Assembly: GCA_041663425.1 (NCBI GenBank)
Contig: JBAYMS010000003.1
Coordinates: 1,959-65,958 of the forward strand
Reading direction: 5' to 3'
From: Candidatus Omnitrophota bacterium
GTDB taxonomy: Bacteria > Omnitrophota > Gorgyraeia > 2-01-FULL-45-10
DNA length: 64,000 nucleotides
The position numbers and the translations under genes were made by a program. Of this stretch, positions 7,356-32,773 are shown one piece after another; position 1 is the first letter of the stretch; the number at the start of each line of letters is the position of its first letter. The notes under the pieces were generated by a model that ran no database searches, had not been told where the DNA came from, and saw nothing but the letters and a program-made list of their open reading frames with translations.

Positions 7356-7360
7356 AATAG

Positions 7361-7367
7361 CTCTCCT
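7361..7367 (-). promoter_or_regulatory. Shine-Dalgarno (AGGAG) for gene 3
   Basis: Minus-strand AAAAGGAGAGCUAUU-AUG, with the AGGAG core 6-7 nt upstream of the start codon. Confidence 0.5.
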
Positions 7368-7420
7368 TTTATATCATTGGGTAAAAAGGTGCCTTTTCTT
7401 TTATTTACAGAACGTGCATA

Positions 7421-7449: not shown

Positions 7450-7492
7450 TGCTTGGAAACTAACTATTTTATACTTTAATTGGCTGGCCTCA

Positions 7493-7564
7493 CTCTCGCG
7501 AGCCGCTTGGCGGAAGCTGCGAGAGCGAAGACCAACCTACTACCGGGGTGGCACCACGGTAGTA
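7493..7564. terminator. Two intergenic stem-loops between the gene A stop and the gene 3 promoter. They may be a terminator or other RNA structure.
   Basis: CTCTCGCGAGC..(12-nt loop)..GCTGCGAGAG at 7493-7525. TACTACCG-(11-nt loop)-CGGTAGTA at 7538-7564, followed by TTTT on the plus strand. On the minus-strand transcript no clean U-tract follows either stem. Confidence 0.3.
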
Positions 7565-7577
7565 TTTTAAGCCCATA

Positions 7578-10500: not shown

Positions 10501-13500
10501 TATGGCATGCTAACAAATACTAGTCCTGTGAGAAGAGCAAGCGCTATAACCATAGCCGTAGAGACAAACCCGGCACGGTTCGCTTCAGATAACGCAGTGA
10601 CGGCGAACTCGTAACCGCGGGAGGCGGAGTCACGTAATCCATTCATAGCAGAGTTTCTCAAGTCCTGATCGATGGCGCTGTTTTTAATAATAGATAATAA
10701 TGCGGTGACGGCGGGTGCGTGGCCGCGGGAGGCGGAGTCAGACAATATATCTATAGTAAATCTTCTTGAGTCCTGATCAATGACACTGTTTTCAACAATA
10801 GATAATAATGTAGGTGTAAGATCATTAAGTGCGGTGACGGCGGGTGCGTGGCCGCGGGAGGCGGAGTCAGACAATCCACCTATAGCGCCGATTCTTAAGC
10901 GCCAACCGATGGCACTGTTTTCAACAATAGATAATAATGTAGGTGTAAGATCATTAAGTGCGGTGACGGCGGGTGCGTGGCCGCGGGAGGCGGAATTCCA
11001 CAATATGCTTATAGCAAATTTTCTCAAGTCCTGATCGATGGCGCTGTTTTCAACAATAGACGACAACGCAGCGATGGCGGGCACGTAACCGCGGGAGGCG
11101 GAGTCATGCAATCCATTCATAGCAGAGTTTCTCAAGTCCTGATCGATGGCGCTGTTTTTAATAATAGATAATAACGTAGGTGTAAGATTATTAAGTGCTG
11201 TGACGGCGAGTTCTTGACCGCGGGAGGCGGAGTCATGTAATGCATTCATAGCAGAGATCCTTAAGCCCGGATCGATAGTATTATTTTCAACAATAGACAC
11301 ACCATCTATCGCAATATTCTTTAGTTCTTTCGCTGGCTTATCATCCAAACCAATCCTCATCTTATCTATAAACTCATCGTTCCATCCCTGTTTTTTAATA
11401 TGCTCATCGTACGACAATCCTAAACCTTGCCCACGATAAAATTTCTCTACTGCCTCATCCTGTTCGTCAGCCATATCCGCCGGAAGAGGAGGAGTATTTC
11501 CGGTGTCAGAAAAAAGCTGCAGGAACGCTATAATGCCTTCCGGGTTGTTCCCAAAAAGATGGTTTATATGTCTGCGCAGCAGCACAGAATGATCCGGCGT
11601 GTATATAGCATGTTGATATAAAGGAAGCCCCGTATGAATAATGTTGAACTCCTGCGGCCGCGTCAAGGCATTATGCACTATAGCCATAGCTACTGCTATA
11701 GTAAGCTGCATTCTCCCAAAATATTCATCTTGTCCCAATTTTATGGGGGCAGGCGCAAAAGTATTCAGGGCCACATTATGTGTTCTTCCATATTTAGTAT
11801 CAAAGTAGAACGGGGTTTCATTTTTTTCCGTATAGCTTGAACCTAAAAGCGCTATTTCATCAAAAGTAAGTATGCTATGGCTGTATGCAAATTTACTCCA
11901 GCAATACTCCATAGATTTACCTATAAAAGTCAGCGCCTTAAGTGAATCATCGCTAAATTTCTTTTTCGAACCGACGTGTATGTGCAAACCCTGCGATAGC
12001 ATCAATCCGTTACGATTACGATCGACATATTCCATTATTTTCCTGAGACCTGAATTTAACCTGTCGAACCCTTCTCTGTTGTTTGGTAACCCACCCTCAC
12101 CCGTAGTTACTTCTATATTAGCCCCGTCTCTTTTGATTACCCAGCCCTGATCTTTTAAACCTTCCTCGGTAGCAAATCGATCTAGCCCATCATAAAGAAC
12201 ATTCGTTGCCGCAATGTTCTTGTCATTTATATTATTACTGTTAAGAAGAGCCATTTCGATCTCTATGCCGAATGTCATATCTTTAGGCATGTTCGGCACG
12301 CCGTCTTTGTGATATCGATCAAGTCGTTTTACTATATTAAGGTAAACCACATACCACTCTTCCGAGAGAGAAGCAAGATCCAGTGCTACGATATTTATTA
12401 TGCGCCTCGAGAATTCATCATCCTGAGTCTTAAATGCATCTATAGAACCAAGGATCATCTCAAGCTCTTTTATGTCATATTTAAAAGAAACGTTAACTTT
12501 AATTAAAAGACGGTATGCCTTACTATGCGCTTCTTTATTCCCGGATTTAGTTAAAATAAGCAATGCTGCTTTTTTCAGAGCTTTCTCATCGTCCACACTT
12601 AAAACTATGCCCGTTTCATCTATAAAGAAAATATTATCAAGATGCGCTTTAAGCTCTCCCTTCTCCTCAAGGGCAATAACATCGGTTACGCTGGTTATAT
12701 TGCGAAGGGCTGATAAGGATACCTGACAATCTCTTTTTATTTCATCAAGCTTTTTCTGTTTCGTAGGAGTTAAAACGATAACCGTTTTATCCGGTAAGAG
12801 CAAATTATTTTTCATCACATATTCAGGTTTATAAATTTTATCTAGAGCGGGTGTTTTTGTAGCTACCATCGTGAGCACGCCGATGCCAATCCCGTTATTC
12901 GCAAGATACGGTAAGACGGAGAAAATATCATTCGAGGCAAAATAGATGTAATCGCTTAAGAACTGCGCGAAACCTAATTGAGCTATCGGTATTATGAAAT
13001 ATGCAATAAATAGGCCGGCAACAATAGAGGCCGTTAAAACAGGTATTAGCGTAAACCCTTTTTGATCAGATGGAGGAGTTTCGGGCGTTGCCTGGCCGGC
13101 AATATCTTCAACTTTCTTCAGGCGCTTGTCAAACGAATCAAACTGTTCCGTTAAAACTTTAAGCCTTTCGCCCATATCCGTAACAGCATTCTGCAAGGTA
13201 ACCAGCAAAGTAGGTTTTGCAGCATTTTCCGCATCCAGCATGGCACGTATACGCTTAAGGCTCGTGCCCAACATGCCCATTTCCCATCCTTTACCTGTTG
13301 CCGGAAATTCTAGTAATGGCTGCAGCAGTTTATAAAGCTCGTCGGAGACTGCAAGGCTCACCGGTGCCTTGACCCTATGGTCAGGATGAATAGAAAGCAT
13401 AATAGTCCGGTGCCATTTTTTATATTCTTCATTATCCAATACCTGCCCTGACACTATTTCCATTATCAGTTTTTTAGCGCCTTCGATATCGCCGTCAAGG

Positions 13501-16500
13501 ATAAGGACTGTATTTTTATCCAGGTTAAAACTGCGGAGCCGCTCGATAAAATCTTCAAATAATGGTGACGAAGAAACCTTTTTAATCGAAACGGCCGATG
13601 CATCTTTTGCCGCCACTACCTTCTGCCCTTCTACAGGTGCCCTCTCTACTGATTTGGGCTTTGGAGCTACTTCTTCCGCGGGCTTAAATACCACTTCCTC
13701 GCGAGGTGCTTCTTCAGAAATAACGCCCTCGTCCCTAGTCTCAGTTTCAGAAGCTGTGCCTGCCCTTCGCTGCGCATCCATTTCAGCGAACTCCCTCCGA
13801 GCTATTTCCTGCGCTGCAGCGTCTTTAGCCTTATCCTCGCTATCCTGCCTGATCCGCTCTCTTCTCTCAGCTGCTGCTCTGGCAGCACGCTCCGTCTTTG
13901 CCTGGTCCGATATATCCTCGCCCTGTGAAATTTCCTGCTCTACGCCCACCCAATACCTTCCGATAACTCCAAATAAAGCCAGGCCTCTTTCTTCCGCTAT
14001 GTTGTTAAGGTTGGACATTACTAAACGGCTTTCGGGCTTCGCAGAGTCCCCATAAAGCGCCTTAAGAATTACCGTAAATAATATGACGACCTTCAATTCT
14101 TCAGCTGCAAAAACATCAAGTCCAGCCTCTTTGGCCAATCTGCTTATATTTAATTTTTCGCGCGCGATCAATTTGTTGAATTCCTTGAGCACTTCGGGCA
14201 TTATTAAAATAGAATGCATAAATAAGAGCCACTCGGAAAGCTCACTCATACCGCTTTCAGTCTTTTTATCTCTTCGGGCATATGAAATCTTTGTATTCTT
14301 TTTTATACGTTCCGCATTATTGCGTATCTTGTCTTTAAGATCTTTAAGCGACTTTGATTTTTTTATGTTTTCGATAAGCTCTTCTTTGAGTAACGTCGCC
14401 CCTACAACATAACCCTGATCGGATGAAAGGCGCGTCATATATTCTTCCTGGATGGCACGATCGGATTGACCGGCAGCTTTTGCTCCTGCAGGGCCCTGTA
14501 ATAAAAGCGGCCTCTGCTTCATGCTTTCGGTAAGCAGAGCGGCAAAACCTCCGCCTCCTTCAGCTTGAGACGCAGGGCCTGTAAGCAACGCCGCCGTGGC
14601 CTGCCCAAGCGCGGATTGCGCATTGCTAGGACTTGCACTCCTCAACTCTGATGCTGTAATGGCCGATACGTCAAGCGTCTTAAGTGTTTCAATAAATGCG
14701 CGCCTGGCCACAGAGCCATCGATCCTATCAGTAACATTATCGGTGTCGATCCCTGCACTATTATAGATAAGCTGAACTTTCTTTGCCCCATATCCGCTAT
14801 CGCCTGGTCCGGAAGAATTCAGATAAGACGCCATGACTTCGGACAAAGTTCTGCCGGCATTTATCGAAAGGATATTTCTGGCAGTTTCCGCATCTATCCC
14901 TTTGTCTGCGTATTGGACCGACTGGCTATAGCACACAACTGCATAAGCACTCAGAAGCCTTTCAAGCAGCCTTGCTATGCTATTTCTGTCTACACCATCC
15001 AGAGTATTCGCAAGGTCATCTCTATATAAAGTCCACGAAGATGACATATCCCCACCGTGTTCAGTGCCGTATGTTAATAGCGCCTTTATAAGTTTATGAT
15101 CTTCTTTGGAGGGTTTTTTAATTTCAGGTTTATGGTCAGTAGCTGCAATGGCAGGTTTTTCAACGGGTCCGATAGCTTCGCCCGCGACCTCTTCTGCTTC
15201 TTCCGCCGTTATGGCAAGTGTCGTCCTGGCGATGATCTCTCCGGCTATTTTTTTGGCTTGCGGAATCAGCGCTTTAGCTTTCTGCGGATCAGTCTCACTC
15301 TTCTGAACCATCTGGAGCATTCCGGCCCTTATCAATAAACGCGTAATCTGCCTGGAATCTGCGCTGCGGGCAGAGGCAGGTAAAAGTATCCTTGAGCCTG
15401 AAGTATAAAAATTATTATCTTCGGCGAAACCGATAGAGGCCCCGGACACAGAATTTTTAATATCGGACACATATTTATAATAAGAACTTTTAGTATTAAA
15501 CCGCCTCATCGCTTCTTCGAATATCTTTTTCGCCGCAGCAATTTTTTCTTCATCGCTGCTACCACTACCCAAAATCACAGATGCAACCGCACCGAATCCG
15601 CCGATAAAAATCACTTTGGCCATAACAGGCGATATAAAATAAGCAGCTCCAGCAAGAACGGTTATAAGAATAAGCCCAATAACTCCCCTTCCTCTGAAAA
15701 GAGCCCTATGTTTTTTATTCAAGTCCTCGGCGGCTATACGGCAAGCTTTTATAATAGCACCGCACTCTTTCGCTTCCGCCATAACCAATGCCTTTTCATC
15801 GGGGTCGCCTATCCTGGAGATTAAAGCCTTCACCCTACCCCTGTCACCGAATAAAATCTCCATATCGGCCAGGCTGTCTAAAAGGCTTAATGTCTGCGGT
15901 ATGTGCTGGAAGGTGTCAAAAAACTTCAAATAATCGGAAGCAGAATCTTTAAAACTGCCTATAGCATCTTTTAGTAATTCTACATTTACGCTTTCACCTT
16001 CTTTTACGCTGCGCTCAACATTTTTAACGTCATCCATTCCTTCTCTATAGCAACCTATTGCCTTATCAAGAATTTCCATTTCTTTGAAAGACGGCCTTTC
16101 TGAGAAATATTTTTCCGATTTAGCCTCCGTGCCAGGGTAGGTCTTTCCGAATATCCAACCGCGAACAAGTTCTACTAATTTTGACAACATCCCGCTTCTT
16201 AAATAAGTCATACCTACGGCAGCCACACCGAAAGAAGCAAACAAACTGCTTCCGACAAGCCATGAAGGCAATGCACCGGAGGCAAAATAAAGATAGCTAT
16301 GCAGAAATTCCGAAGGGCCTATTATCGATATTCCAAAAAATACTGATATGGTAAGCGCTGTAATAAGACCAACCATCGCGAGAGCTGCTGACACTTCAAT
16401 CGTTGTAAAACCTGAGCGTTTATTATGGGTCTCGATCTTATTTACAAATTTTGCTTTAAGCATAATTTCATCGAATTCCTTCAATCTGGACAAGCACAAG

Positions 16501-19500
16501 TCTCTCCAGTCCTTATCCTTAAGATCAGCGATAAGCTCTTCTATTTCGGCATACTTATTACTCCTGAGAGGCAGCATCATATTGATAAAGTGAGACCCAA
16601 GAGAAATTCGTCCTTCTCTGAGTCTTTTTAAAATCCCAATAAATTTTGAAAAATCTACTATAGCCTCAGATAAAATTGCCGGATCCGGATGTTGCGCGTT
16701 TTTAAAGCCTTCCAGGCAAAGCACGCCTTCCTGATAATATTCATTAGCCTCGTCCTTAAGCTTTGCGGCCTCTTCATCAGATAAAGCCTTGCCGCGCCGC
16801 AGCACCATAGACACAACTTGAAAAATCAAAGCAACCCCTAAGATAGCGATAATAGCCACTGCTACTACCGGGACAAAATAACACGCAGCTAAAAATATTA
16901 TGCCAAATATACCTATGGTCTTAGCAGTCCTTAAATCCCCTCCTTCTTCACCATCATCCATATTGTCTTTGCCAAAATATATCAGACCGGCAACGCCCAT
17001 AATAGGAATGCCGGCCTTATCCGGAGAAGCAAAAAATTTCATCGCCTTATTTATAAGATCCTGAACCTGTGGCCAATTAAAGAATGCATAAACTGCACCC
17101 AGGCCGATGGCTGTAATGAGGACACTGCGCAGCATATGCGTCTTTGCTTTGTCGTGCCGGACCACCGGTGCCGAACGTGAGAATAAGGATAGGAAGGCTA
17201 TCGCATCGGTTAAAATGAACACTGCGAGCACCAATGCCAAGCTGGTACCAGGATTTTGTTTAAAAAACTCAATACCTGCATTTATAGCATCATTTACTCC
17301 TTTAGCAAATGGACTCCCGGCTGCGGCAAGTAACAACATCGGTGCGTGGAGCTGACGAGGCGCTGCGGCTTTGTCTGATAAAAATTTCTCACGCTGGACT
17401 AACGTGGATTCCCACATACTAACTGATTCGGCCTGCTTTACATTTTTCTCCGATTTCAGATAATCCATATTAGCTATATGATGAATATTTGTGGTAAGCA
17501 CAAATTCTAGAAGATTCAGTAAAATCGCGATAATACCAAAGGGCGTATTGATCAAGGCAGGATTGGCCAGGATTTCTGAAAAATCAAAAGGCGCTACGGC
17601 CAGCGAGGCCAGAACATTAAAAGCAAATATCTTGAATACTGATTTCGTCGGGGGCGCTCTTATGCCTCCGACTTCGATAGAATGCGCTGCGTAGAATATA
17701 GCCCAAGAAACAAATATCGCTCCTATAGCACCGCCGAAGTAATTCATCAATGTAAATGCCTGCGTAAGCGCAAAGAACCCGAGCTGTTCCCAGAAAGCCT
17801 GATAGTGCTCAGTAAGCCCCAGCCATTTAAGCGGCGTCTTCTCCGCAGACCTTAAGAATGCCCGCACCATAGGTATCATCCCCGCGGCAGGAGTTTTATT
17901 ATTTAAAATATTCGCAAGTCTTTCCGTTTCGGCCGTTACCTCTGATATCCTCTTTTCAGTGCCTTCCGGCAGGCCGGAATATTTCATAAAGAAACCCGAA
18001 ATATCTTTTTGCAGCTGCCCGGGCTCTTTTTCTCTTTCGATTTTACGATGTGATAAAATTTTCTCTACGGCCATCATAGCACCGCAGGCCAAACCGAAAG
18101 CAAAACAGAGGGCAACAGCTCCTCCGCCGAAGGCAAAAAGGCTTCCTAAAGCAATGGTGATATAATCATATTCCCAATGCATCGCTACTATCGCGACAAA
18201 TGTCCCCACACCTGCAATAGCCCCGGCTGTCCCGGCAATAGATATGAGGATCTTTTCTTTGAAATCGAAGAAAGGCTCGTTAATAAATGCAGGACCTGCG
18301 ACAGGCGCTTTTAAACTATCTATTTTTTCACTATTTTCGATAGCCGTATTATAAAGTTTAAGGCTTCTGTAAAGATGAGTGAGTATTTTTGCCCTGTCTT
18401 TATTTAAAGTGAATACCGGATCGCCTGTATTGCTGTCACGCCCCGACCTGTAGAAAGGCCAGTCCTGGTCCCTGAATGGCCTTCCGGCCGGATCAAATTC
18501 AGAGTTGAACAAACTTACTTCCGGAAGCAGCATCTTTCTGTCATGGCTGTATCCGACAAAAACCCTGACATTTATATCAACGTTATTTTTTCTGCCAAAA
18601 TACTCAAGGACTGATTTAACATATAAAATAGTTTTACCGGTAGCGGCCATATCCATCAAAAGAATATCCTTATGGTCAGTTATACCGCTGCGCCTCATCT
18701 GTTCAAATAGCAGCTCCGCCTCTTTTGCGAGAGCAGGATCGCTATTCCACTGTTTTATCATTTCATCTTTAAAATAAGCACTGATCTCATTAACTAATTC
18801 CGGGTGATAGCTGGCATAAAAAGCATCCGTCTTCTTTGAAGGCATCCTGCCGCCGCGGCCTATTACCGCATTGCTTAGCTTTTGTATAGAATGCGCTTTC
18901 GCTTTTTCGGTAGCACGCTGCACCATTTCAATACCGCTATCAGGCACATAATCACTGACAATAGCATTATTATTCATACCCGGCTGATACACCAAAGCGC
19001 CTGCGGCGGAATAACCGTTCGCCATACCGTAGTATTTCATAAATTCAGCGGCAGTTATAGCGTCACGGGCGAGGAAAACCGGAAATTCACCATGCTTAAT
19101 ATCAGCGGCATTGAAAAACGAAGGCAGATTTGATATAAGCCTGTCCAGGTGTGTCATATCCATATATAAAGACTGGCGGTGATATATAAGCTGGTAGCGG
19201 AAATATTCTATGGGATCCAGCATATTATATTTTCTGGATATATCACTTACCGGCACACCGCTTTCTATAAGTTTATTGTTGGCTTTTTCCAGGATAGCGA
19301 ATATCTCTTCGTCAGTGAAAGCCCTTGGCTTGTTATTATTATCACGCGGCATCTGGTCTTTAGGTAATGCCCATATGATATTATTGAGATCTTCCAATGT
19401 AAAAGTTTTATGTCTGGCGAATGCGGCTATCTTAGCGGCTATTTTTTCGTATAGGATAGATGCCACGGCAGACGGCTCAACACCATCAGATGCAGACGCA

Positions 19501-22500
19501 TAAGGATCTTTTATTTTCTTTGTCAACTCACGGTCTTCCGCACCAAACACGTGCCATTGCAGCGCCCTAAGAAGATAGTGTTCTTCCACGTGCTTATCCG
19601 GATTCGATCCGGCTTTTAACATCATTATCTCAAGTTCATCCGGGGCTGTTTCCTTAAGATAATTTTTTATAGCTAAAACAAGCCCGGGATTCAGCATAAT
19701 AGCTGAATGGGCTATCTCGTGGAATAGGGCTACAGGATTGTCAGATATTGTTTTTGAAATGACTATAAGATCTGGCGTAGCAAACGAAATGACCGGATCG
19801 CCGGGATGAGAAAGCAGTATAACGTTTCCTTTAAAAGATTTAAGATACGTATCTATAATGGCATTCGCGACAGGATTGTTGTGTTTTTTAATGTCATCTA
19901 AAATGGTTTTTATATTCCTTGGCGGAGCACGACCGACAAAATCTGCCTTACTCAGATCTATAACATTACCCGTCTCCCTATCCTTTAATAAACCTGTCAG
20001 CCTATTTTCGGGTGCATTGTATTGCGGGACAGCACCTTCCACTGGATCGTACTTTCCTATCATACCTACCTGTGAACCCTCAATTATCGTGCCTTTGCCA
20101 TCATGGAAAAACTGACATTGCGGATATGCCTCGGCCTTTTCAAAAATAGCCCGCTCATGCTTTGCCCAGGCGGATACTTCTCTATCGCGCGCATTAATAA
20201 AAGTATTTGCGCTCATTATGTCTATGGCCGCGCCCATAGCGAGTCCTTCTTTCCTGGCTTTAGCTCTGCCGATGAGGACATTTCTGCGCTTCCAACCTTC
20301 TTTACGTGCAAGAAAGCCCACGTCTCCCATATCATTAGACCTGACCCATGACCTTACAACGGCCTTCCACTGAGATCCGATAGATGAGTCAACTGTCTTG
20401 ACGCTGAAAAGACCGTTGTTCAATTCTTCTTCTTCGAGGAAATGATCACCCAGTCTTAGTATATTGCGCACTCTTCTGGCATTTGCCCCAATGGGCCTTC
20501 TGATGAATTCTATTATCGCGCTTCTGTTCTTTTCAAGATCCTGCCCCTTATATAGATCCGCAAGTCGTATACTAACCATATCTTTTCCACTGAATTCCTG
20601 CTTATCAAAATTTGGGGTTATGAGCGCTGCGCGCAGCAAACCCGCCATCTCCTCGCGCCGCTCGGTGGAAATCCCTTCATCCCTTCCTTCTTCCACAGCC
20701 ATCAAATAGGCATGAAGTTTTGAATATTCTAAAAGAGTGTCAGAGACTAAGTCTACCTGTTTTGAATATGGCGTTACAACAGCTATATCGTCAGGGGCAA
20801 GATTGCGCTCATTCAAAAGCCAATTGACCCATGTAACCACCCTGCTGACTTCACCTATATTAACTATTCCTCTGTCAGCAGTATCTTTTCTGGCCCTTTC
20901 CGAAGAGACAATTTTTTCCTGATATATCCTTTTGTCCGTCAAACCTTGCCCATCACTGATCGCATAATGATCCCTTACCAATGTCCCGGTCTCTTCACGA
21001 CCGGCTTTCAGCCTACCATTGTAAAAATAGTTCTCTTCGTCTACTACTAAAGTACCCGACCGGCGCTGTATGTCAAGGAAACGGAAGCTGGGCCTTGTCA
21101 CTTTGAATACCGTATTATCGTAAAGATCCAGGGATTTTTCGAGAAGTGAAATTTTAAACCTTTCCACCACATCCGTCTCAAACACTTCGGCTAACGGCCT
21201 GTTCTCCCCGACTTCACTCCATCCTACGATCTCGCTCTGTCCGCTTAAGTCACGCAGTGCGGCTGCAATATCTTCTTTGCTGATACCATATGCCGGCAGC
21301 TGATCCTGGTCGCCTACGAATATGGCTTTTTTAACATCGCTGAGATTGGTAAACATCCAAAGCGCCCATAAAGACTCCGGAACCGTCGCCCTGCTAGACT
21401 CATCCACTATAACATAGTCCGTCTTCATGAGCTCCTGTCTATCTCTTACATCACGATCTCCGAAAAATCCATTTACAGTTCCGCAGACAAGATTAGGTGC
21501 TTTTTTCTGTATAATATTATCCAGAGCGGCAGCCTTATTCTCCCAGTCACCTAATATCTGAGGATCTACGGCATCCTCATTATTACCCACTCTGGCAAAA
21601 GGGATCTGTTTCACTCCTGACCGCTCCTGTTCACTGAACAGCCCATCTATATCCTTTAGCACCTTTAAAATGTTATCCAATGCGTCATTCTGCTGGGACA
21701 ATAACCTTAGCCTTTTCTTCTGGTTTTCGACTATCAGTTTTGCAAGAAGCGTTATGACCATGGTCTTTCCTGTGCCGCCCGGGCCCTGTATGAGCGTGAT
21801 GGGAATTTCCTCGCATAAACCGTCTATCAAGGCCTCTTTCTGTTCGGAATCAAGAGGATACTTAAGCATTCTTTCCAGCGGTTCTATAAGATCGCGCTCT
21901 ATGGCATTTCTTTTTTCAGCTATGGAGGATGCTCTGGCTTTATCAGGCACATCGATCAAAATCCCGAGAGATCTGTCTGCAATAGGCCGGCCTGTTGTAG
22001 CTAAACCGAAGGATTCGCCTTCACCTATAGACTGCTTCGTTGAGACTTTCAATCTTCCTATAATAGCAGCGAGCATTTCGCACTGTCTCTGCCAGACATT
22101 ATCCTTTACCATGACCAGTTTGCCGCCTTCGTTCAGCGCGTAGGACCACTGCATAAGCAGCTGATCATAACCTGCCCTTACCTTAGGCTGCTCAAATTTA
22201 ATGGTATCCTCTCCTACATAACGCACTCTAAAAAACGGCTGCAGCTCTTTCTGGTTTGATTTAGCAGGGCGGACTTTAAATGAATCGCCGCGCCTTACAA
22301 AATTTGCAATATCTATTTTTTGACCTGTCGTAGGATGTTTAAAGCCGGATACGTAAAGGAAGCCATTTCTCACACTAACCTGTTCAAATACGAATTCCGC
22401 GGCAGCGTCCTGGGATATGTGCATACCCTGCCTCGTCTTCTTATCCCTCTCGGCCTCCGACAGCATCATTGCCTTAGCGATAAAATAATCGTCCATAAGT

Positions 22501-25500
22501 TCCGGCAGCCATATATTCGCCGCAGCCTGTGAAATTATTTTCTGAGCTTTTTCAAGATGCGCTTTTGCCGGAGAGAAATCTCCGAGTTCAAATATCGCGC
22601 GCGCCATATCAAGAGCTGCCTTATAAGCTTTTTCTCTGGCGGCCTTCTCCTTTTTGTCGATCTTACCGGCCTTATTAAATTCATCAATAGCTTTTTGGGT
22701 AAGCAATTCAAAAACGGCCGTCTTGTCCGCTTCTTCCGGATACTGCAGAAGGAGCCTTGATTCCTTCAGCACCGTTTCAACATCCTGTGCATCCCTGATA
22801 TTTTTTGTATGTTCAGCTATATTATCCCTACACTCCTCTATCCTCTGGATCAGCCTCGTAAGAGCGGGGCTATTTTCGTCTATCTGCACGCCAAGGACAG
22901 GCTTAACCCTGCATATATTAGCCACTATAGCAGAAGCTTCTCCATATCTGCGTTCGGCGATTTTCGACTGTGCTTCCGCCAGCAGTCCCTGAACCTTTAA
23001 AAGACGCTCTTCTGCAATTTTCTGCTTCCGCTCTTCCATTATGCTGCCCAAAGCGCTTAAGGCTTCGTCTATATTCCTTCCATCTATAGAAGGATCGCGA
23101 AGGGCTTCGCCCGCATAGATACACCAGCCGGCATCCTCTCCGGCAATTTTAGCTGCACGATCCCCTTGGTTCCTACCCAGAAGTGCCTGTGCGGTAACGG
23201 AAGCTCCTTCGAAATTACTGTCTTTATATTGTTTTTCAAATTTCTCCCATTGCGCAACAGCAGCCAGTATTTCATCTCTTAATGGACCGAGAATACTTGC
23301 AGCATCAGCTCTGGTATTCATAAGTTCCGCGGCATTTTTATACAACGCCGATTTATATAACGAGTCTACGGTAGACTTATACGCATCCGCGCTAAGTTCT
23401 TTTTTTATAGACGAAAGAAAAACACGCATCTTATCTTTTAATTCGCCTTTTACTTTTTCCGAATGGGATAGATCTGACAACGCTATATATACTTTATTCC
23501 CTTTTTCATTCAATCCTATTTCGGCAGCAAATTCGGCTATGCGCATCACCCTAGCGACATCTTCCTTATTATCTATTTTTATCTCTCCACTGGCTATTTT
23601 TTCTAAGTACCCTATTATTCTGGAGAAATCTAAAGAACCGGAAAGCACGGACAAAATATTGCATATGATATGCATTGAATCCTGCGACAAGGGCTCATCG
23701 GACTCATTCAGGAGAAGATCCGTCAGCATATCTACTATTTTCTGGGCCCACTCGTCTGGCAGTAATTTTATGAGCATCGGATAAGAAAATCTGCTCGAAC
23801 CATCCGCCCTTCTGCTGTTTACTACGTTCCTTCTATTGCCATATTCTTTCCCTTCAAAGGCTATCGCATCCTTCAAACATTTTTCTGCTGCCCGAACGTC
23901 CCCTTTCGCATTAAAAGCAATCGCGCCCACTACGTTCATCTGAAAAGCCGTTTCATATCCTTCGTTTTTAAGCGCCATATCCACAGATTCGTTAAGCACT
24001 TCTACGGCATCATCATTGCGGCCTGCAAAAACATCCATAAGCATATGCTGCAAAGTAATATTTTCGCGCCTTTTTTCGGAAACAACTTTATTTATAAACC
24101 CTCCGGATATTTTAGACATAGCCTCGGCCTCACTAAACCTGCCCTCACTTTTATACATATGTGCCAGATTCTGGAGTAAAAGCATATTAAGTAAATTTAC
24201 TTCGTCGTTTTCGGTAGGATAATATTGCTGATTGACGGCAATGACTTCTGCTAATTTTTTAAAGTTATCCCGGTCTTCCAGAATATAAGCCCAAAACGCC
24301 ATGGGGACGCTCTCTGACATCATATTATTTTCTACTATAGGGGGGGTGTAAACAGTTACTGCATTTCTGATAGCTGCATAAATATCAGGATTATGAATAG
24401 CCGCAACGAATGCCGCATTTATATCTATTCTGGATATAGCGTCAAGAACATCCCTTGCCGGCGACACAACCGTTCCGTCTTCCTCAGTCCAGCCATGGTT
24501 TTTTACCATTTTACTTATATTGTCCGACCACACACCCCAGATGTAATCAGCTTTCTCAATATCGGCTTTCTCTCCTAAATACTGGAGAGCCATAGCATAG
24601 CTAGTCAATACATAAAGATCGTCGGCTGAAATCCTTACAACCCCCTTACTTCTTGCAAAATCACGTAAAAAAGAAGTCCGCTCAAAGAACTTAACTGCCC
24701 GCCTATACATACCGGCATTAGAGGCGATTCTACCCAGCCTAGTATATAGTCTGTTAGCAATTCTAATAAGCTTTGAGTCGGTGGCCTTATCCAAAGTATC
24801 AAAGAAAGAACGAAATTCTGCGCGGCTCTTTTTATCTCTCTGTTTTGCAGTTTTTTGAACCTCATAGTTATTATTTATATATTCGAACATCGCTTCCAGC
24901 CTATTTTCAAACTCACGCTTTTTGGGCATATCCCATGAAATTATCTTGAAATGCTCCAGCACTACATCTAACAAATGGTCATGCTTTAGAGGCGTAAGAC
25001 CTATTATCCCGGAAGCTTTGACAATCCTTTGACCCGATTCATCCTGAAGGCATAACACTGAGACAGGGTCATCATTTTTTTCGGTAAAATACCTGCTGAA
25101 AATATCGGAGTATTCTTTCGCTATTAAAGCATAAGTCTCTTTTAAGCCGCGCCCACAGAAGTTGGATATTACAAAAACATTATCTAATTTCTTATCCGCA
25201 AGAGGATCAGCCGCAAGCTCTTTCCTTAAAAATTCATTTAAAGAGTTTGATAGCGGGATATTGCCGTAATGCTGTATGAGAGATTTTACCCAAAGCATTG
25301 CATCGCTACCGTCTCTCTCATTAAAAGCCGCTGCTATAACCTTAATCTTGGATAATATCTCCGGAGTAAGCTCCCTCTCTCTAAGTTTGTCATCCAGCAT
25401 TTTACGCATTCCTCTGGAAGGGTCGGATTTAAATTGCAGCCTGAAATTTATCATTGCAGCAAACGCATCGTCAGGGACAGCTCCCCAGCCATCTATGTCA

Positions 25501-28500
25501 CTTATTGTGTTATCAGCCTTATCCATAAGCAATTTACGCTGCTCGTTGGACAACCCCATGAAAATATCAAATGGTAATATAACACCTCCGGAAAGAAAAT
25601 AATTTTTATCATGTGTATGCATCCTTTTAAATAAATTTATAGCGGCAGCATCAGCTGCATCGGCCTTGCCAAGATGCGAAAGGATGTCTATATAGTATGG
25701 CAAAGCGCGTATGATCTGTTCGTCACTGCCTTTATCAAGAACAGCCGCACATCTTTTTTCCAGCGCTTCACTGAAATTACCTTTATTGCATTCCAGAGAA
25801 ATGCGGAACATCTCGCGTTCGGCATCCTGCTCTGCTGACGGCATCATCTTTGTATCGGACATTGCGATCTCCGCTTCCTCAAAAGTCTCCGACACCATCT
25901 TAAAAAGTTCGGCAGCGCGTGCATCATCTTTACCGCGTAATGAACAGGCTAATTTGATTGCGGCATTACAATACAAAGTGTCAATACGGCCATTGGCGGG
26001 ATAGTCAGCTCTCAATCTTTCCAGAAGGTCAAATGCCTTTGACACGTTTTTATCATCACCCATCATAAGGTCTGCCTCAGCGCATCTTTTAAGCATTTCC
26101 AGCTTGGTATAATTTCTCATACTATCATTTATCATATTTTTAGCGCACATCTCATCTGCGATCGCTACATATTTAGCGGCTATCTTTTTTATCTTGTCGG
26201 GGATGTCTTCTTCTGCGAATAAATATTGTCTGACGTAGATCTTCAGTAAAGCTTGGGCGGAATAAATACTTTCTACCGGGGGCGGCCCTTCCCTGTAGAC
26301 TATAAATTCCAGGATGATCCTGGAAGTCTCCCAGTCTCCCAACATATCTGACGCCATAGCCAATACTGCCAGCCATCCGGTCTTGGGAGATGGTTCCGAA
26401 ATTTTTAACAACAGATATTCATAGGCTAATTTAGCTAACTTCTCATAGTTCTTTTGTTCGACATACACATCTTTCATAGCCGCATAAATCTCCTCCAAAT
26501 CAGCCTTCATCTCACCGGTTCTTTTGCAAAATTCCAAAGCCTTAAGACCATACTCTTCTGCTTTCGCCAACAATATGCCAACTATTTCCGGCATCGTTCC
26601 TTTTTTAGCAATATTTAGAAGAATGCTCGGAAATAATACATAAAAAGCATCGCCTTTCCCCTGCTTACCCTCCAAGGCGTTGCCTTTTTTTGCCATTTGG
26701 CTAACTGCATAATCAAGCAATTCCTCAACCATTACCACTCTGCCTTCAGCCACAACACGGCGTAACATCACGGCAACTTCTTCTTCGAGTTCCGCCTGCC
26801 TCTGTGGTTTTATAGCATCATTGGCAATATCTGCAAAAAGTTTTGAAACAATCCGGTCCGCCTCCTGTTTGTCAGAGGCAGGCAATCCCCTACCACCACC
26901 TAAAGCAGCATATAGTAATATTTTTTTATTCTTAATGACATTTATCACGGCTACGATAACATTTACGCCTAGGTGCACAGCCATCGACACGAGGACTGCG
27001 AGATGATAATTTGACGAGAAGTAGCTTGCTGCAATTATTCCTGCAACACTTACTATGAATGGAGCGGTAAATACCCTGAAGATATAAGAACTGTAGTCTT
27101 TCGTTATTTCTGATATAGCTCTGCCTTTTATCGGAGGAGCGCGCTCATTAAATATGTGCAGTATGGTAAATATAGCCGCGGAGATTGAAAGCGCTGCAAA
27201 AGAATATCCTCCAGTAAACGCCATAGGCAGCCACACTTTAGCAGCTTCCTCAAATACAGGCGCATGAGCAAATGGTGAGTATCCCGAGCCGAATATGCCT
27301 GTAAGAGATCCGTATCTCGCTTTTACAGCATCCTTTGGAATAGTTAGTTCGGCTACAGGTACGAAACCAGCTTCCGGCGCCTTAGCCCTTGATGCAAAAC
27401 CGTTTTCAAACCCTTTTTGCCAATGAGCCATTAAATTTTCCACGGTAAGCCTTTTGCCAGCCTGCTCTATAAAATAGTTTTGAATATCTATGCTTGCATC
27501 CTGAATGTCCTCTTCTTCATTCCTCTCGATAAGTTTAGGAATGTAAGTCTTTGCAAGTTCTTCCGCCTCCTTCTGTGTATTCATAGTCACGAATCCGCCC
27601 AGATCAAAGAAGCAAACCTTTATGCGTTTATTTTTTTCCTGCGCCGATGGATCCAAACTAACCCCTGCATTAACAAGAAGCACGTCATGATTAAATATCC
27701 CGGCTTCCCACATGTCTTCAAGTGCTCTGAAATAATCATCAATAATAGTCTTTGCTGTTTCGACGTCTTCGCTACTGCCTTTAGAAAGAGTTTCCAGTAT
27801 ACCGTTTTCTACAAAACGTGACCCCACCTTCATATACTCCGCATCAAGCCCTACTATAGGCACTATTTCATCTTCTACATACACAGTACTCGGCGGCGAC
27901 CATATCATACGGTCACGGAAACGCGCGGGAACTTTCGGCCTTATATCGTCGATGACACGATTGGGTAAAGTCACTCCTTCAAGCTTGGTTGTAGGTACAA
28001 ACCTCGTCCCGAGATTATTAATAGCCGTCTGCGCACTAACCAGGCTCAGCTGTGCAACCGGGACATGAACTATAAATCCTCTGCAGTGATAAACATAACA
28101 AGGCGTTTCATCATTCGACCGTGGCCTGCTGATAAGCTCCCAGTCATTGTTTGCGAGTTCTTTATGTAAATCGGCTTTGACAGGTTGGCCTTCCCCAGTC
28201 ACACCTGCCATACCCACCGGGAAATGGGTGCTGGTTTTTTTCGAAAGCCACTGAGAGATTTTAACATTATAGAATGCATGGCCTAGAATGCCTGAAAATA
28301 CGGAGAGAGTCGTAGCAGGATAAACCGGCAGGAATAAAAATGGCACAATATTTATAACCCGCAAAGCTGCGCCTAGCAATGTTATTATATTTATCATATC
28401 CGGATGTGATGGTGAATACACAGGTCTGCCATCCTCTGTAATTATATAAACACCACGCCAATGCGCTGCCTGAAACAGAAAGATGCTTAGCAGGGCACCG

Positions 28501-31500
28501 AAAATAATACCCGTGGAGGTCCCAAAGCCTGTGCAGTCTGCCAGAAAAGCACCCGCGCCCACAAGAGCGCTGAAGAATAATTCTTCGAAACCGGCGAGGC
28601 CGGAGATCGCCCTGTATGACCATCCACGATCGTGCAGATAGTGAACAAGCCCGTCTCCTTCCACTGCGCCTCTCCATATAAAAGGCGTCATTCCTTCAGG
28701 AGCTATCGGCCCGCCCCCTTCCGGTTGCAGCTGTTCTGCTAATAACATTTTAGCCCATATTCTTCCGAGCAGTTCTACATATTCATCATCATTTATCGGG
28801 CCCACACTTTTCATGACGGAGGCAACTATATTGCTGACATCCCTTTGGATCCCTCTGGTATATTCATCTGCTATGCCCGGCCTTTTTTCTGCAGATATAA
28901 TATACGAAATGTCATCCGCGCCCATTTTATCTCCACGTATTCTATCAACTATTTTATCTATGACGGCTTCCTCTACGTTTACGGCAAGAACACTTAAAGG
29001 CTCACCAGGAAGAGCTGCTACGGATTTTTCTATCTGTCCAAGCAAACTTTCTATATCTTTTGACATCTGCACATCTTCCTGCGTAACTTTACCGCCCTGC
29101 GCTATGCAAAACTCTTTATTAAGGCCATCCAGCTTCACCCACAATTTCTTAGCATCTTTTTCGGAAATAGGAGAGTTTGCTATTATGAAATTTAAATCCT
29201 TAAAAAGCGATTTTATTACAGCCCGCGCTTCAGCACTCTTATCCACTCTGCGTCTTGAGATTAAAGAATCGCCCATAGCCACCTTAATATCAAAACCACT
29301 GACAAGCACTCCGGCGGTCTCAACAGCATTTTTTGGAGCCCCCCTTTCTCTCCTTTTAGCCCATGAGAATATACCTAAAATGCCGACGCTATACAGGAAA
29401 TTAAGCATAACTATTCTTATGCGCTCCGAGAATGTCCGCTTAACCGGCCTAACCTCTTTTTTTTGCTTTTCTGCAGGCGCGGGTACACCAGGCTTTTTTA
29501 TTTCCTCAGGCACTTTAATATCAGGAATATCCACGTCTACGGGCATCTGTGCTTTTTTCAGATCCGAAGGAGCTGTCACCGGCACTTGCCCCATACCTAT
29601 TTTTATCTTTCTAAGATACCAAGGCGTGCTGGTCGCCAGTGCCATACCAGCTTCTGCCGCAAGCATACCACCCATAAGAACGGCTATCATAAACCCTTTG
29701 ATTACGGGATTTATCCCGGCCGCAGGCGCGGCGGCTTTAGCAGTCTCTGGCACAACTTCTGCAGGCGCTAAATTTGAAGGAATAGTTGATGGTTGTTCTG
29801 ATACTACAGGAGCCTGAGGGATCACTGTCTCTGAAGTCTTTTCTACCGTTCCATGTATATTTGTTTTCGACCAGGATTCTGCCAGGAACGCTTCTACGCG
29901 CGCGCCGCCGCTACGGAATTTTGTTATCATTGCATCGCGCAAAGTTAAAAATTCATTCTTTCTGTTTTCAAAATCAGGCATTCTGTGAGCAGGGTTACTT
30001 TCGATCTGGGCAACCGGGTTATATTCACCCACTCGCAAGAAAGATTTTTGGAATGAAGTCGTCGGCATTGTGGAAATAATATGATAGCCGGCATATTCAG
30101 GACGGTTGAGCAAAAATTTCATAAGAGCCCTTCCTCTACCGCCTGCGTTTTCGAGATTGGGGAACGGGAAGAACTGGGTAAAAACGATGGTTTTATATTC
30201 CGTTATCGGATAGAAGTGAACCCGCACTTCATTTATCTGGATACCGTCTTTAAAAACTTTCAAATTCTTAAAAGATGCTCCGGCTTCGTTGTCAAACACA
30301 TCCTCGACAGTAAACTGATAACCCTCATTAATAAGATCATCTATGGTTAAGTCGCGCTTTTGCGGCAAAGGCTGGCTTGGCACCGGGACAATCTCTTCCG
30401 TCTTTTCCATCCCGGCCATTCTTCTGTTCACTTCTTCTCTTATGCTCTCTTTTAAATCACCTTCTATCCTTAAGATACGGCAGACAGTATCAAAGTCTTT
30501 ACCAGATGCTGCCATCCTGCTAGCAACGTCATCTACCAAGTCCTTAGTTTCTTTAAGCGATGATTGATACCGTGGTGCGGTGATTATTGATGCTTCAGCC
30601 CGGACAGCTTCCGCGAAGGCTTCAGGAGAAGGAGCGTCGCCCTGTGCAAAATTGGCAGTGGGAGCAATGTGCTGGTCGCCAATAGTGCCTTCATGTATCA
30701 CCGTGCTTTCATTTTGCGAGATCTGAATGGGTGATGTTTTTGTGGCCGGATGATGAGGTTTTATTATGCCTTTTTTAACAAGCTCATCATAGCTATCCTT
30801 ATAGCTTTCTATCCAGAGTTCCGCGATATTCCTTACGTTCTTACCCTGGCTTTTCGCCTGTTTTAAGTTTGTAACAATTATATCTTTTATAAAAGCTTCG
30901 ACCTTACCGGGATCCTGTATCGAATCCTTGAGATAGTCTTCTGTAAGCAGCTGATACTTGCCTGATTCCAGCTGTTCTTCGTAGTTCTCTTTCTTGTTGG
31001 TAAGTATGGCTACATATGGCCTCTCACCTTTGGATGCGTCAAACTTGGGGAGAATGACAAGGTATGAGGTGTCTTTGGCTTTGAGCAGATCGGATATGCC
31101 TCTTGTGTGATAACCGCCTGTGATAAGGGCGGCTACCGTCTGGCCTTCTTTGGTCATACGGCTTATAGTGTTGCTCAGTATAGTGTGATTACGTTTTTCA
31201 GCGGTGGTGTAGAAGCTTATGGCCGCAGGAATATTTGAGAAGATATTATTTAAATCGTAGCTGCCCTCTATGGGTATGTCATATTTTAAAGATTCTTCTT
31301 TGATGAAGCCTGATATGCATTCGGCATTACAGATAGCGATGTTCTTTTCCAGATACTCGAAGTCTGAATTGGTAAGCTTTAAGTCGAATATGTCGCGGAC
31401 GAAGCTTACGCACTTCAGTATGTCGTGCAGCTTCCTCTGGTCGGGGGAAGTGTAGAGTTTTTCTTTGATGGCGTCTTCTAAGTATTTGGCCTCTTCGAAT

Positions 31501-32745: not shown

Positions 32746-32773
32746 ATTATATCATATAATACTAACTTGTCAA
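32746..32773 (-). promoter_or_regulatory. Consensus sigma-70 promoter for gene A (TTGACA-16 nt-TATAAT)
   Basis: Minus strand reads TTGACAAGTTAGTATTATATGATATAAT. The -35 element is at 32773-32768 and the -10 at 32751-32746. It lies in the 198-bp AT-rich spacer about 85 nt upstream of the gene A ATG. A weak AAAGGAAAA lies about 12 nt upstream of the ATG. Confidence 0.55.

Follow-up and report, generated by a model that had tools for sequence, protein, structure and literature searches.

The closest described systems are the eukaryotic Upf1-like helicases of superfamily 1B (IGHMBP2/SMUBP-2, Upf1/NAM7, Sen1/SETX, DNA2 and ZNFX1), which combine the Pfam domains AAA_11 and AAA_12, the colinear motifs I–VI and a catalytic Lys, Asp-Glu, Gln and Arg in a common plan of β-barrel, stalk and two RecA domains. 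In bacteria and archaea, Upf1-like helicases are found as stand-alone proteins of 600–1,100 residues, which keep the motifs DEAxQ, QYRM and QGxE. The Upf1-like helicases of bacteria are common in defence systems, and a core of this type is present in MkoA and MkoC of the Mokosh system (PADLOC). Giant genes were discovered in Omnitrophota only recently, are still poorly understood and remain largely unannotated; the sole motor discussed in them to date is the divergent SecA_DEAD module, also a P-loop motor within a long protein rich in transmembrane (TM) segments (10.1101/2023.11.21.568195).

The window analysed here, a stretch of 64,000 nucleotides from a Candidatus Omnitrophota assembly, encodes a complete Upf1-like SF1B helicase in a gene that we denote gene A. 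The helicase shares the two Pfam domains, the motif order, the catalytic residues and the domain plan with the eukaryotic enzymes, which are its best matches in both sequence and fold, but identity in the structural alignments is only 14–17%. It has DExxR, QRRS and IGx(E/Q) in place of DExxQ, QYRM and QGxE, carries an extra helical insert of ~100 residues in RecA2 and another of ~65 residues after motif III, and is devoid of the CH, R3H, zinc-finger and nuclease accessory domains; unlike the eukaryotic helicases, it is embedded in an 8,360-residue polytopic membrane protein. The stand-alone prokaryotic helicases have the same core, without the barrel-proximal family motifs and the RecA2 insert, and appear from rank ~39 downwards in an exhaustive search. 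We consider it reasonably likely that gene A encodes, in residues ~3422–4178, a true Upf1-like motor, probably catalytically competent, that is tethered to the membrane and handles nucleic acid within a conserved block.

The accessible parts of the main text and supplement of the 2023 study of West-Roberts et al. and of a 2026 survey (10.64898/2026.06.07.730766) make no mention of AAA_11, AAA_12 or Upf1-like domains, and a literature search gave no relevant account of such domains in Omnitrophota or in giant proteins. The helicase block is so far a conserved, hitherto undescribed part of the Omnitrophota giant genes, and it adds a second, unrelated motor domain to their products.

Fold, motifs and catalytic residues of the helicase

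A preliminary description of the DNA had placed a helicase module of the Upf1/Sen1/DNA2 type at 20260–22430. On the minus strand this interval is stop-free and corresponds to residues 3411–4133 of gene A (32660..7578), and the class assignment is borne out independently by profile HMMs, by motif-by-motif alignment and by the predicted fold. Its bounds need adjustment at the 3′ end, which stops just past motif VI; the conserved module is ~45 residues longer, to ~20127. The 5′ part (22107–22382) is β-barrel and not RecA1. The module is laid out as follows.

20127..22397, minus strand: Upf1-like SF1B helicase module with barrel, stalk, RecA1, RecA2 and a conserved C-terminal extension (gene A residues 3422–4178)
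22107..22382, minus strand: N-terminal β-barrel, like domain 1B of Upf1-like helicases (residues 3427–3518; strands 17–108 of the AF2 model)
21864..22100, minus strand: stalk helices leading from barrel to RecA1 (residues 3521–3599; AF2 helices 111–132 and 164–189)
21312..21848, minus strand: RecA1 with motifs Q/I, Ia, Ic-like (GTVNGF) and II (residues 3605–3783)
21096..21296, minus strand: low-confidence insert between motif III and RecA2 (residues 3789–3855; pLDDT <50 at model residues 379–445)
20196..21089, minus strand: RecA2 with motifs IV, Va, V and VI (residues 3858–4155)
20460..20765, minus strand: family-specific helical insertion of ~100 residues in RecA2, between motifs Va and V (residues 3966–4067; AF2 helices 556–657)

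As anticipated, both AAA_11 (PF13086; E 9.7e-20) and AAA_12 (PF13087; E 5.5e-18) were matched, with 71.9 and 65.7 bits against a cut-off of 27 in each case, and AAA_19 and AAA_30 were also matched in the Pfam scan of gene A. Searching the PDB sequences with the module returned IGHMBP2 (8.7e-13) as well as DNA2, Upf1/NAM7 and Sen1; with the family profile the matches were IGHMBP2 at 1.3e-45, Upf1 at 1.7e-32, Sen1 at 7e-30 and DNA2 at 8e-30. These Pfam and PDB E-values exclude a chance match. The assignment is to the Upf1-like group at large: the score for the IGHMBP2 family (NCBIfam TIGR00376) is 69.4 bits against a cut-off of 348.9, those for RecD2 and RecD (TIGR01448, TIGR01447) are 34.9 against 500 and 20.7 against 310 bits, and Pfam found no R3H or zinc-finger domain in gene A.

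The AF2 model of the module consists of a β-barrel, a stalk and two RecA domains, and is of moderate quality (pLDDT 71.9, pTM 0.66, with 136 residues below pLDDT 50). The accessory barrel (1B; 17–108) and the stalk (111–189) are positioned on RecA1, as in the Upf1-like fold. The 20 best Foldseek matches are Upf1-like helicases throughout (6.6e-20 to 1.9e-16), led by Upf1 (8rd3, 6.6e-20) and IGHMBP2 (4b3g), both at ~7e-20, and including Dna2, Sen1, SETX and ZNFX1. The relatives align to positions 12–769 of the module. In the barrel they have a family motif, GD.F.(I/V)R...LQPFFRV, with the conserved columns D49, F51 and G103; motif III spans the C-terminal boundary of RecA1, and the insert that follows it closes with a conserved (F/L)(K/R)ISLLEK element. 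At the site of the RecA2 insertion IGHMBP2 has a few residues only, its chain passing from 551 to 556 where the family profile covers 550–649.

Motifs I, II, III, V and VI, which had been recognised previously, are all found and stand in canonical order, although motif V is not itself canonical. In an alignment with 40 relatives and IGHMBP2, motifs Q/I, Ia, II, III, IV, V and VI are colinear.

21762–21785, minus strand: motif I, GPGGTGKT
21672–21698, minus strand: motif Ia, SQQNDALDN
21384–21413, minus strand: motif II, VIVDESSRAT
21291–21314, minus strand: motif III, GDQDQLPA
21054–21068, minus strand: motif IV, QRRSG
20757–20774, minus strand: motif Va, TPYSKQ
20364–20396, minus strand: motif V, TVDSSIGSQWK
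20259–20318, minus strand: motif VI, GFLARKEGWKRRNVLIGRAK
20370..20372, minus strand: codon CAG for Gln4097, at the glutamate position of motif V (QGRE in IGHMBP2)

The Walker A lysine (K3632), the Walker B pair (D3753, E3754), Q3787 of motif III, R3867 of motif IV (within QRRS) and both arginines of motif VI (R4125, R4132) are present in gene A; the preliminary description had proposed the Walker B Asp-Glu and the motif VI arginine as points to check, and both are kept. All of these residues are invariant in an alignment of ten family members (A1), in which the invariant columns include G216, K222, D343, E344, Q377, R456, R457, G685, R715 and R722, together with the nucleic-acid-contact residues D252 of motif Ia and T318/G321 of the Ic-like motif. 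The members of this alignment are only 30–41% identical; invariance of the catalytic residues despite this divergence points to selection on catalysis.

A dead or weakened helicase-like domain, serving as a nucleotide-dependent switch or as a scaffold that binds nucleic acid or protein and not as a motor, could be read from the departures in motifs II (DESSR, without the canonical Gln), IV (QRRS) and V (IGSQ) and from the large insertions in and beside the RecA domains. The canonical QGxE, whose Gly and Glu face the nucleotide, is absent from motif V, where Gly4095 is kept, Ile stands for the Gln, and Gln4097 stands for the Glu; the latter is conserved in the relatives (E687, ≥90%), with IGxE in nine of nine aligned relatives and Gln in gene A alone, a substitution that could weaken the coupling of the ATPase. 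This reading is nevertheless unlikely. The lysine of Walker A, the Asp-Glu pair of Walker B, the glutamine of motif III, the arginine of motif IV and the two arginines of motif VI remain invariant among relatives with only ~35% identity. The non-canonical residues (R after DExx, QRRS, IGxE) are themselves conserved in the family, as is typical of a functional subfamily, and this argues for an adapted enzyme rather than a decaying one. The helicase of gene A is probably catalytically competent.

Host protein, conserved block and relatives

Gene A (8,360 residues) is one of three tandem giant open reading frames, the others being gene B (10,319 residues) and gene C (>2,457 residues); an Rfam scan of the window gave no match, and no rRNA or tRNA marker. 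At 8,360 residues gene A falls short of the 10-kaa limit set in the 2026 survey (10.64898/2026.06.07.730766), which gene B exceeds; the combination of a very long reading frame with numerous TM helices is that of the Omnitrophota giant proteins.

7578..32660, minus strand: gene A, 8,360-residue reading frame and host of the helicase (ORF list and six-frame check)
Gene A residues 44–62: N-terminal signal-peptide-like or anchor segment (hydropathy scans)
Gene A residues ~978–1906: TM cluster 1 (hydropathy scans)
Gene A residues 1907–4807: stretch of ~2,900 residues without strong TM segments (hydropathy scans)
Gene A residues 4808–7680: TM cluster 2 (hydropathy scans)
19482..26801, minus strand: conserved supermodule of a ~1,450-residue helical/TPR-like scaffold, the helicase and an HExxH domain (gene A residues 1954–4393)
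19494..20057, minus strand: zincin-like HExxH domain adjoining the helicase (HEIAH at 19707–19721; gene A residues 4202–4389)

The membrane megaprotein proposed as host is upheld by hydropathy, with ~7–9 hydrophobic helices on the N-terminal side of the helicase and at least 14 on its C-terminal side (~21–30 in total). Ahead of the helicase lie the signal or anchor segment and seven strong TM helices. Lys and Arg are enriched after the TM segments at 1888–1906 and 4847–4865, which places residues 1907–4807 on the inside; the helicase-bearing stretch is therefore predicted to be cytoplasmic, on a topology drawn solely from hydropathy and the positive-inside rule. TM predictions for long Omnitrophota proteins differ from program to program (West-Roberts et al., 10.1101/2023.11.21.568195). 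In several relatives a signal-like segment and one TM segment precede the helicase, giving the same parity as in gene A.

The helicase does not stand alone in the chain. The supermodule of gene A is colinear with residues 1821–4113 of one relative (P0002) and, through the helicase, with residues 101–2303 of another (P0003), with 28–30% identity over 2,317–2,437 BLASTP columns (E = 0). Weak TPR matches were found by Pfam at residues 2637–2934, and the HExxH domain is present in the closest relatives.

In an exhaustive HMMER search, the closest relatives of the helicase (33–43% identity) all lie in proteins of 3,000–7,800 residues or fragments of such proteins. The 12 best of 1,783 matches among cluster representatives are proteins or fragments of 3,227–7,818 residues throughout, and ~25 more distant representatives mostly exceed 1,300 residues. 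Members of the giant-protein clade were matched at E-values between 1e-64 and 1e-150, the stand-alone helicases at 1e-12 and weaker. The five named relatives are all proteins of Candidatus Omnitrophota MAGs and, as judged from these matches, dozens of further Omnitrophota proteins of very great length contain the helicase block. A setting first described as unusual is so in comparison with the textbook stand-alone helicases of bacteria, but is the rule in this lineage. Gene A and the giant-protein helicases were monophyletic in 97 of 100 bootstraps of a neighbour-joining tree, while the more distant tier of relatives was not cleanly monophyletic with the closest one. By sequence comparison the giant-protein helicases form a distinct clade with DExxR, QRRS, IGxE and a RecA2 insert of ~100 residues as signatures, which defines a bacterial Upf1-like subfamily for helicase phylogeny.

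Word-indexed searches with the module, the family alignment and the pre-helicase alignment returned generic helicases or nothing, though the collection contains relatives, and the exhaustive search of representatives was therefore required. No relative was found when genome and metagenome contigs were scanned with peptides from the window, and a scan of the genome contigs for a generic P-loop pattern returned one true relative (L003, identical with P0005).

Some relatives (P0003, P0014 and P0015) have an N-terminal signal-like segment alone ahead of the helicase, with no TM segment in between, and read literally their helicase would be exported. It is conceivable that the N-terminal signal peptide found throughout the family, the conserved C-terminal domain and the TM clusters serve secretion of a multi-effector protein, and that the helicase is cargo that acts in a prey or host cell, on prey RNA or DNA and with prey ATP, possibly after proteolytic release. 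Signal-peptide-like N-termini ending in (W/F)A, found in A, C and most complete relatives, fit this account, as do neighbouring long paralogues, which have the same N- and C-terminal modules and different cargo (GH15 with amylase, or a Ser/Thr kinase), the RSE.R linker motif enriched in relatives (8–11 copies against 0.15–0.25 expected, often directly past the helicase), and the zincin-like domain next to the helicase. MARTX-type multi-effector toxins are likewise very long, with conserved termini, variable central cargo and a protease in cis; the likeness serves as a lead only. The helicase of gene A is predicted to be cytoplasmic, and repeat regions of the MARTX kind were not found. Omnitrophota have been reported to be predatory, and the domains of their giant proteins are mostly predicted to be extracellular (10.1101/2023.11.21.568195). 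Set against this, TM parity and the positive-inside rule place the helicase of gene A in the cytoplasm, no RSE.R-like motif occurs in A, B or C, and the window shows no sign of secretion-system genes. To our knowledge there is also no precedent for the secretion of a Upf1-like helicase. The 2026 survey regards TM-rich giants as inner-membrane-anchored (10.64898/2026.06.07.730766), and export of the helicase of gene A as an effector appears unlikely. A more general form of the idea is distinctly unlikely. In it, predatory Omnitrophota would possess an unrecognised class of exported modular megaproteins that have in common a signal peptide with an N-terminal module and a C-terminal domain terminating in SA/SAA, and whose central cargo (helicase, glycoside hydrolases, kinases, zincin) can be exchanged; the Upf1-like motor would be delivered into prey against RNA or DNA and, in some lineages, be set free at RSE.R sites.

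Putative mode of action and remaining alternatives

In a membrane-tethered Upf1-like motor, the reading that we prefer, the ATP site would lie between RecA1 and RecA2 and be formed by Lys3632, Asp3753/Glu3754, Gln3787, Arg3867, Gly4095 and Arg4125, and a single nucleic-acid strand would run across the top of both RecA domains, beneath the β-barrel and stalk. Translocation would be in the 5′→3′ direction and powered by ATP hydrolysis. Because the module is covalently fixed in the ~2,900-residue loop between the TM clusters it could not travel, and would instead act on nucleic acid from the membrane face, drawing it in, unwinding it or stripping it. The upstream helical/TPR scaffold is a probable recruiter of partners, and the downstream zincin-like domain may process a protein partner. 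RNA is tentatively favoured as substrate, given that the structures of IGHMBP2 and Upf1, the nearest solved relatives, are RNA complexes; DNA is a somewhat weaker candidate. The helicase hints at a role of these megaproteins, at least in part, in the handling of nucleic acids rather than cell-wall polymers, and a soluble module of ~760 residues with predictable mutants offers an experimentally tractable handle on them.

A defence module of the Mokosh type (MkoA/MkoC), or of another helicase-based system, fused into a large protein would agree with the frequency of Upf1-like helicases in bacterial defence, and MkoA is indeed the strongest match in the defence library (PADLOC PDLC03920, E 1.2e-42). 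The match is limited to the helicase core (profile positions 611–1008 of 1112), and its 144 bits roughly equal the generic AAA_11 and AAA_12 scores added together. No PLD nuclease (MkoB, or fused as in MkoC) turned up when A, B and C were scanned with Pfam, and no defence partner when C and the remainder of A were scanned with PADLOC; flanking domains and genomic setting also differ from Mokosh. The helicase lies within a conserved block of 2,400 residues, and the P0002 gene is adjoined on the chromosome by PFOR and flanked by the housekeeping genes dnaX and recR. With a score no better than that of a generic helicase and no partner found in these scans, the defence reading was rejected as very unlikely.

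It has been proposed that the SecA_DEAD domains of Omnitrophota giants act in self-export (West-Roberts et al., 10.1101/2023.11.21.568195). By analogy, the helicase might be an ATP-driven polypeptide motor that aids insertion or export of the giant protein itself; a SecA_DEAD domain is present in the adjacent gene B (residues 4135–4301, E 1.9e-12), and TM clusters lie on both sides of the helicase. SecA_DEAD was not found in the Pfam scan of gene A, and its SF1B motor is of another superfamily than the DEAD-like motor of SecA. The nucleic-acid-contact motifs Ia and Ic-like are conserved, as are motifs IV and V and the barrel and stalk typical of Upf1-like enzymes that bind RNA or DNA, and protein translocation is not known to us for any SF1B helicase; such a role is highly improbable.

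The chance that mis-assembly or a frameshift joined a stand-alone helicase gene to its neighbours is negligible, as no support for it was found, a stop-free frame of 25 kb is beyond chance, and independent JGI, ENA, NCBI and Logan contigs have the same architecture, colinear over >2,300 residues.

Elsewhere in gene A, residues ~7110–7360 form tandem HEAT-like repeats of ~40 residues, and these are the source of the enriched k-mers DSASRG and AVTAL, which had been candidates for a cleavage or linker motif. The spacer between genes B and A contains a promoter of sigma-70-type consensus, ~85 nt upstream of the start of gene A.

32746..32773, minus strand: sigma-70-type consensus promoter, TTGACA-16-TATAAT with TG (12/12)

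Fold and catalytic residues of the helicase module

The window holds three giant minus-strand open reading frames (A, B and C), and a preliminary description had placed an Upf1/Sen1/DNA2-type SF1B helicase in gene A at 20260-22430. Both the observation and the Upf1-like SF1B classification are right, as judged by Pfam, PDB profiles, the predicted fold and the colinear motifs. The interval corresponds to A aa 3411-4133, although the conserved module extends slightly beyond its 3' end.

Helicase module of gene A and its motifs
20127-22397, minus strand, A aa ~3422-4178: conserved helicase module, from motifs and alignment
Motif I: GPGGTGKT
Motif Ia: SQQNDALDN
Motif II: VIVDESSRAT
Motif III: GDQDQLPA
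Motif IV: QRRSG
Motif Va: TPYSKQ
Motif V: TVDSSIGSQWK
Motif VI: GFLARKEGWKRRNVLIGRAK

The Pfam matches named in that description, AAA_11 and AAA_12, are both above cut-off (71.9 and 65.7 bits; cut-off 27 each), and the top NCBIfam match is the IGHMBP2 family, with a score far under its cut-off. Searching PDB sequences with the module alone retrieves IGHMBP2, DNA2, Upf1/NAM7 and Sen1. A 10-sequence family profile finds IGHMBP2 (1.3e-45), Upf1 (1.7e-32), Sen1 (7e-30), DNA2 (8e-30), SETX (1.7e-24) and ZNFX1 (9e-24), with nsp13-type coronavirus helicases and Aquarius next in rank (~1e-15 to 1e-11). The AlphaFold2 model, built with the family alignment as input (pLDDT 71.9, pTM 0.66), consists of an N-terminal β-barrel, two stalk helices, RecA1, a disordered insert and RecA2, which carries a ~100-residue helical insertion. 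Foldseek comparison of this model with the PDB gives Upf1 (8rd3, 6.6e-20), IGHMBP2 (4b3g), Dna2, Sen1 and SETX, and further matches to ZNFX1, Aquarius and nsp13.

Motifs I-VI, placed by coordinate, are colinear. In an alignment of the module with nine relatives (30-41% identity to the module), the Walker B Asp-Glu pair (D343 and E344 in module numbering) and the motif VI arginines (R715 and R722) are invariant, so that motif order and catalytic residues bear out the earlier reading. Also invariant are G216 and K222 of Walker A, Q377 of motif III, the motif IV arginine pair (R456 and R457), G685 of motif V, and residues in the nucleic-acid-contacting motifs Ia and Ic. Relative to canonical Upf1-like helicases, the clade shows conserved departures of its own (DExxR for DExxQ, QRRS for QYRM and IGxE for QGxE) and carries two insertions; since the departures are conserved, they indicate a functional subfamily signature rather than decay. 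One residue is unique to gene A: Gln4097 (codon CAG, 20370-20372) is a glutamate in all nine aligned relatives and in IGHMBP2. Judging from the sequence, this substitution may lower the activity of the gene A protein.

Recurrence in long Omnitrophota proteins

Searched exhaustively with HMMER, 1.84 billion representatives yielded 1,783 matches, 22 of them with E <1e-30. The best 12 (E 1e-150 to 1e-64, 33-43% identity) cover the entire module, barrel and RecA2 insert included, and belong to proteins 3,227-7,818 aa long or to evident fragments; even the nearest is only 43% identical. A second, more distant tier of ~25 representatives (1e-41 to 1e-21) is found mostly within proteins of 1,300-6,900 aa, and ordinary helicases of 600-1,100 aa first appear at ~1e-19 and make up most of the matches weaker than ~1e-12. 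Neighbour-joining on 302 core columns groups gene A with the closest tier as one clade in 97 of 100 bootstraps. The named relatives (MDD5137074.1, MDD5437268.1, MDD5438819.1, MFH1997001.1 and MFQ5951897.1) are all Candidatus Omnitrophota MAG proteins. The arrangement is thus recurrent and not an isolated case: long and giant Omnitrophota proteins conserve, as a core part, a new and lineage-specific variant of Upf1-like helicase. The literature searched (10.1101/2023.11.21.568195 and 10.64898/2026.06.07.730766 included) does not describe this link and makes no mention of Upf1-like, AAA_11 or AAA_12 modules in such proteins.

In the second-tier relatives P0014-P0038, Walker B is Glu-Glu rather than Asp-Glu throughout the group (V(I/V)EEAGRAT), and motif IV is a conserved NRRS.

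Topology, proposed function and alternatives

Segments and domains of the gene A protein (minus strand)
A aa 44-62: signal-peptide-like or anchor segment (…IVWA/QE), by hydropathy
A aa 43-587, 30900-32534: N-terminal module shared with the gene C fragment (aa 19-532, ~5780-7319)
A aa 978-1906: ~7 strong transmembrane (TM) helices, by hydropathy
A aa 4202-4389: HExxH domain, ~190 residues (HEIAH, 4314-4318)
A aa 4808-7680: at least 14 TM helices, by hydropathy
7581-8483: conserved C-terminal domain, ending ..SA/..SAA/..QAA (LLLSSAA in A)

Hydropathy scans give no strong TM helix in A aa 1907-4807, and K/R clusters follow the TM helices at 1888-1906 and 4847-4865. By these simple methods, helix count and the positive-inside rule would place this region, and hence the helicase, in the cytoplasm; TM predictions are fragile for such giant proteins (10.1101/2023.11.21.568195). 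Several relatives have a signal-like segment and one TM helix upstream of the helicase, giving the same parity as in gene A, and a few have the N-terminal segment alone. A aa 1954-4393 is colinear with aa 1821-4113 of the relative P0002 and, up to and including the helicase, with aa 101-2303 of P0003 (28-30% identity over >2,300 columns). In this block a helical/TPR-like scaffold of ~1,450 residues is joined by the helicase and, in A and its closest relatives, by the HExxH domain (47-48% mutual identity).

From the sequence and the model, the module is probably a Upf1-type translocase that is driven by ATP and moves 5'->3' on single-stranded nucleic acid. It would be tethered at the cytoplasmic face of the membrane within a scaffold-helicase-zincin unit; held in a polytopic protein, the enzyme would stay in place as it translocates, so that nucleic acid would be pulled or remodelled locally. 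RNA is slightly favoured over DNA as the substrate, by analogy with IGHMBP2 and Upf1, the nearest solved relatives.

The most interesting alternative is an exported multi-effector megaprotein with the helicase as cargo. Most complete family members begin with a signal-peptide-like segment ending (W/F)A. In A and C it is followed by the paralogous N-terminal module (35% identity, E 1e-87), which has an IQDAH....AQ motif and no Pfam match, and which also heads P0004, P0006, P0008, P0010, P0012, P0034 and neighbouring long genes at their loci. The C-terminal domain, also present in P0003, P0005, P0006, P0009, P0010, P0012, P0014-P0023 and P0028, may serve the whole family for sorting or recognition; the SA/SAA ending occurs in 14/37 close relatives compared with 6/113 other matches. 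Neighbouring non-helicase long paralogues share both terminal modules and carry GH15/amylase or kinase cargo. An RSE.R motif, which may be a linker or processing site, occurs in 8-11 copies per protein in P0008, P0010 and P0012 (also in P0005, P0006 and P0009) against 0.15-0.25 expected from shuffles, typically between domains and 50-80 residues past helicase motif VI. However, the motif was not found in A, B or C, and the topology of gene A favours a cytoplasmic helicase.

The invariant catalytic residues speak against a catalytically dead scaffold, though Gln4097 leaves room for one in gene A itself. A defence module of the Mokosh MkoA type is a weak candidate: the PADLOC MkoA match (1.2e-42) is limited to the generic helicase core of that profile, its score is about the sum of AAA_11 and AAA_12, and no PLD or other defence partner turned up by Pfam in A, B or C, nor by PADLOC in C and the remainder of A. 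We know of no precedent for an SF1B protein-translocating motor, and a SecA-like role conflicts with the conserved nucleic-acid-contact motifs, barrel and stalk. The 25-kb open frame rules out an assembly artefact, as do independent contigs that share the colinear layout.

Neighbouring giant genes and further domains

Giant open reading frames and their domains (minus strand)
63818..32859: gene B, 10,319 aa
50916-51416, B aa 4135-4301: divergent SecA_DEAD domain (Pfam E 1.9e-12)
36468-40073: TPR region of gene B, strong Pfam matches
32660..7578: gene A, 8,360 aa
9816-10325, A aa ~7446-7615: sigma-70/ECF-like region between TM helices (TIGR02937, E 3.2e-10)
7373..3: open frame of gene C, start ~7355, leaving the window at its left end (2,457 codons, >2,450 aa)
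2778-3116 and 1269-1628: gene C, CofD domain (2-phospho-L-lactate transferase, E 1.5e-16) and weak match to the 2'-5' RNA ligase superfamily

The three co-directional, tandem frames nearly fill the minus strand (3-63818), and their Pfam yield is very sparse; the matches in gene A are AAA_11, AAA_12, AAA_19, AAA_30 and weak TPRs. Gene B has five hydrophobic helices (aa ~5408-6313). Its SecA_DEAD and TPR combination is an architecture published for Omnitrophota giant genes, among which tandem, TM-rich genes with SecA_DEAD domains have been reported (10.1101/2023.11.21.568195; 10.64898/2026.06.07.730766), and the setting of the window fits this picture.

The sigma-like region of gene A scores 39.9 bits against a cut-off of 42.9, with near-full model coverage and a weak Pfam Sigma70_r2 match. 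A separate ECF sigma and zf-HC2 anti-sigma gene pair lies immediately upstream of the giant gene encoding P0002 (7791-8832 of its contig, L001), and P0002 shows faint HTH matches. These elements, like the sigma-like region, are further parts of the family with a relation to nucleic acids. In gene A, the sigma-like region and a TM pair are preceded by ~6 tandem HEAT-like repeats of ~40 residues (…SAID.DLR..A...L.DSASRG..PAVTAL…; A aa ~7110-7360, 10581-11333). Near the C-terminus, A aa ~7784-7952 (8805-9311) gives a weak kinase-like signal (Pfam Pkinase, E 0.041), which a PADLOC PD-T4-6 match (E 8e-4) overlaps.

The 198-bp spacer between B and A contains a perfect sigma-70 consensus promoter on the minus strand (TTGACA, 16 nt, TG-TATAAT; 32746-32773); no comparable promoter signal and no terminator were found in the A-C spacer. 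The ATG of gene A is preceded by a Shine-Dalgarno-like AAGGAA. The coding strand of all three frames is purine-rich, so that the GC skew of the plus strand is negative throughout.
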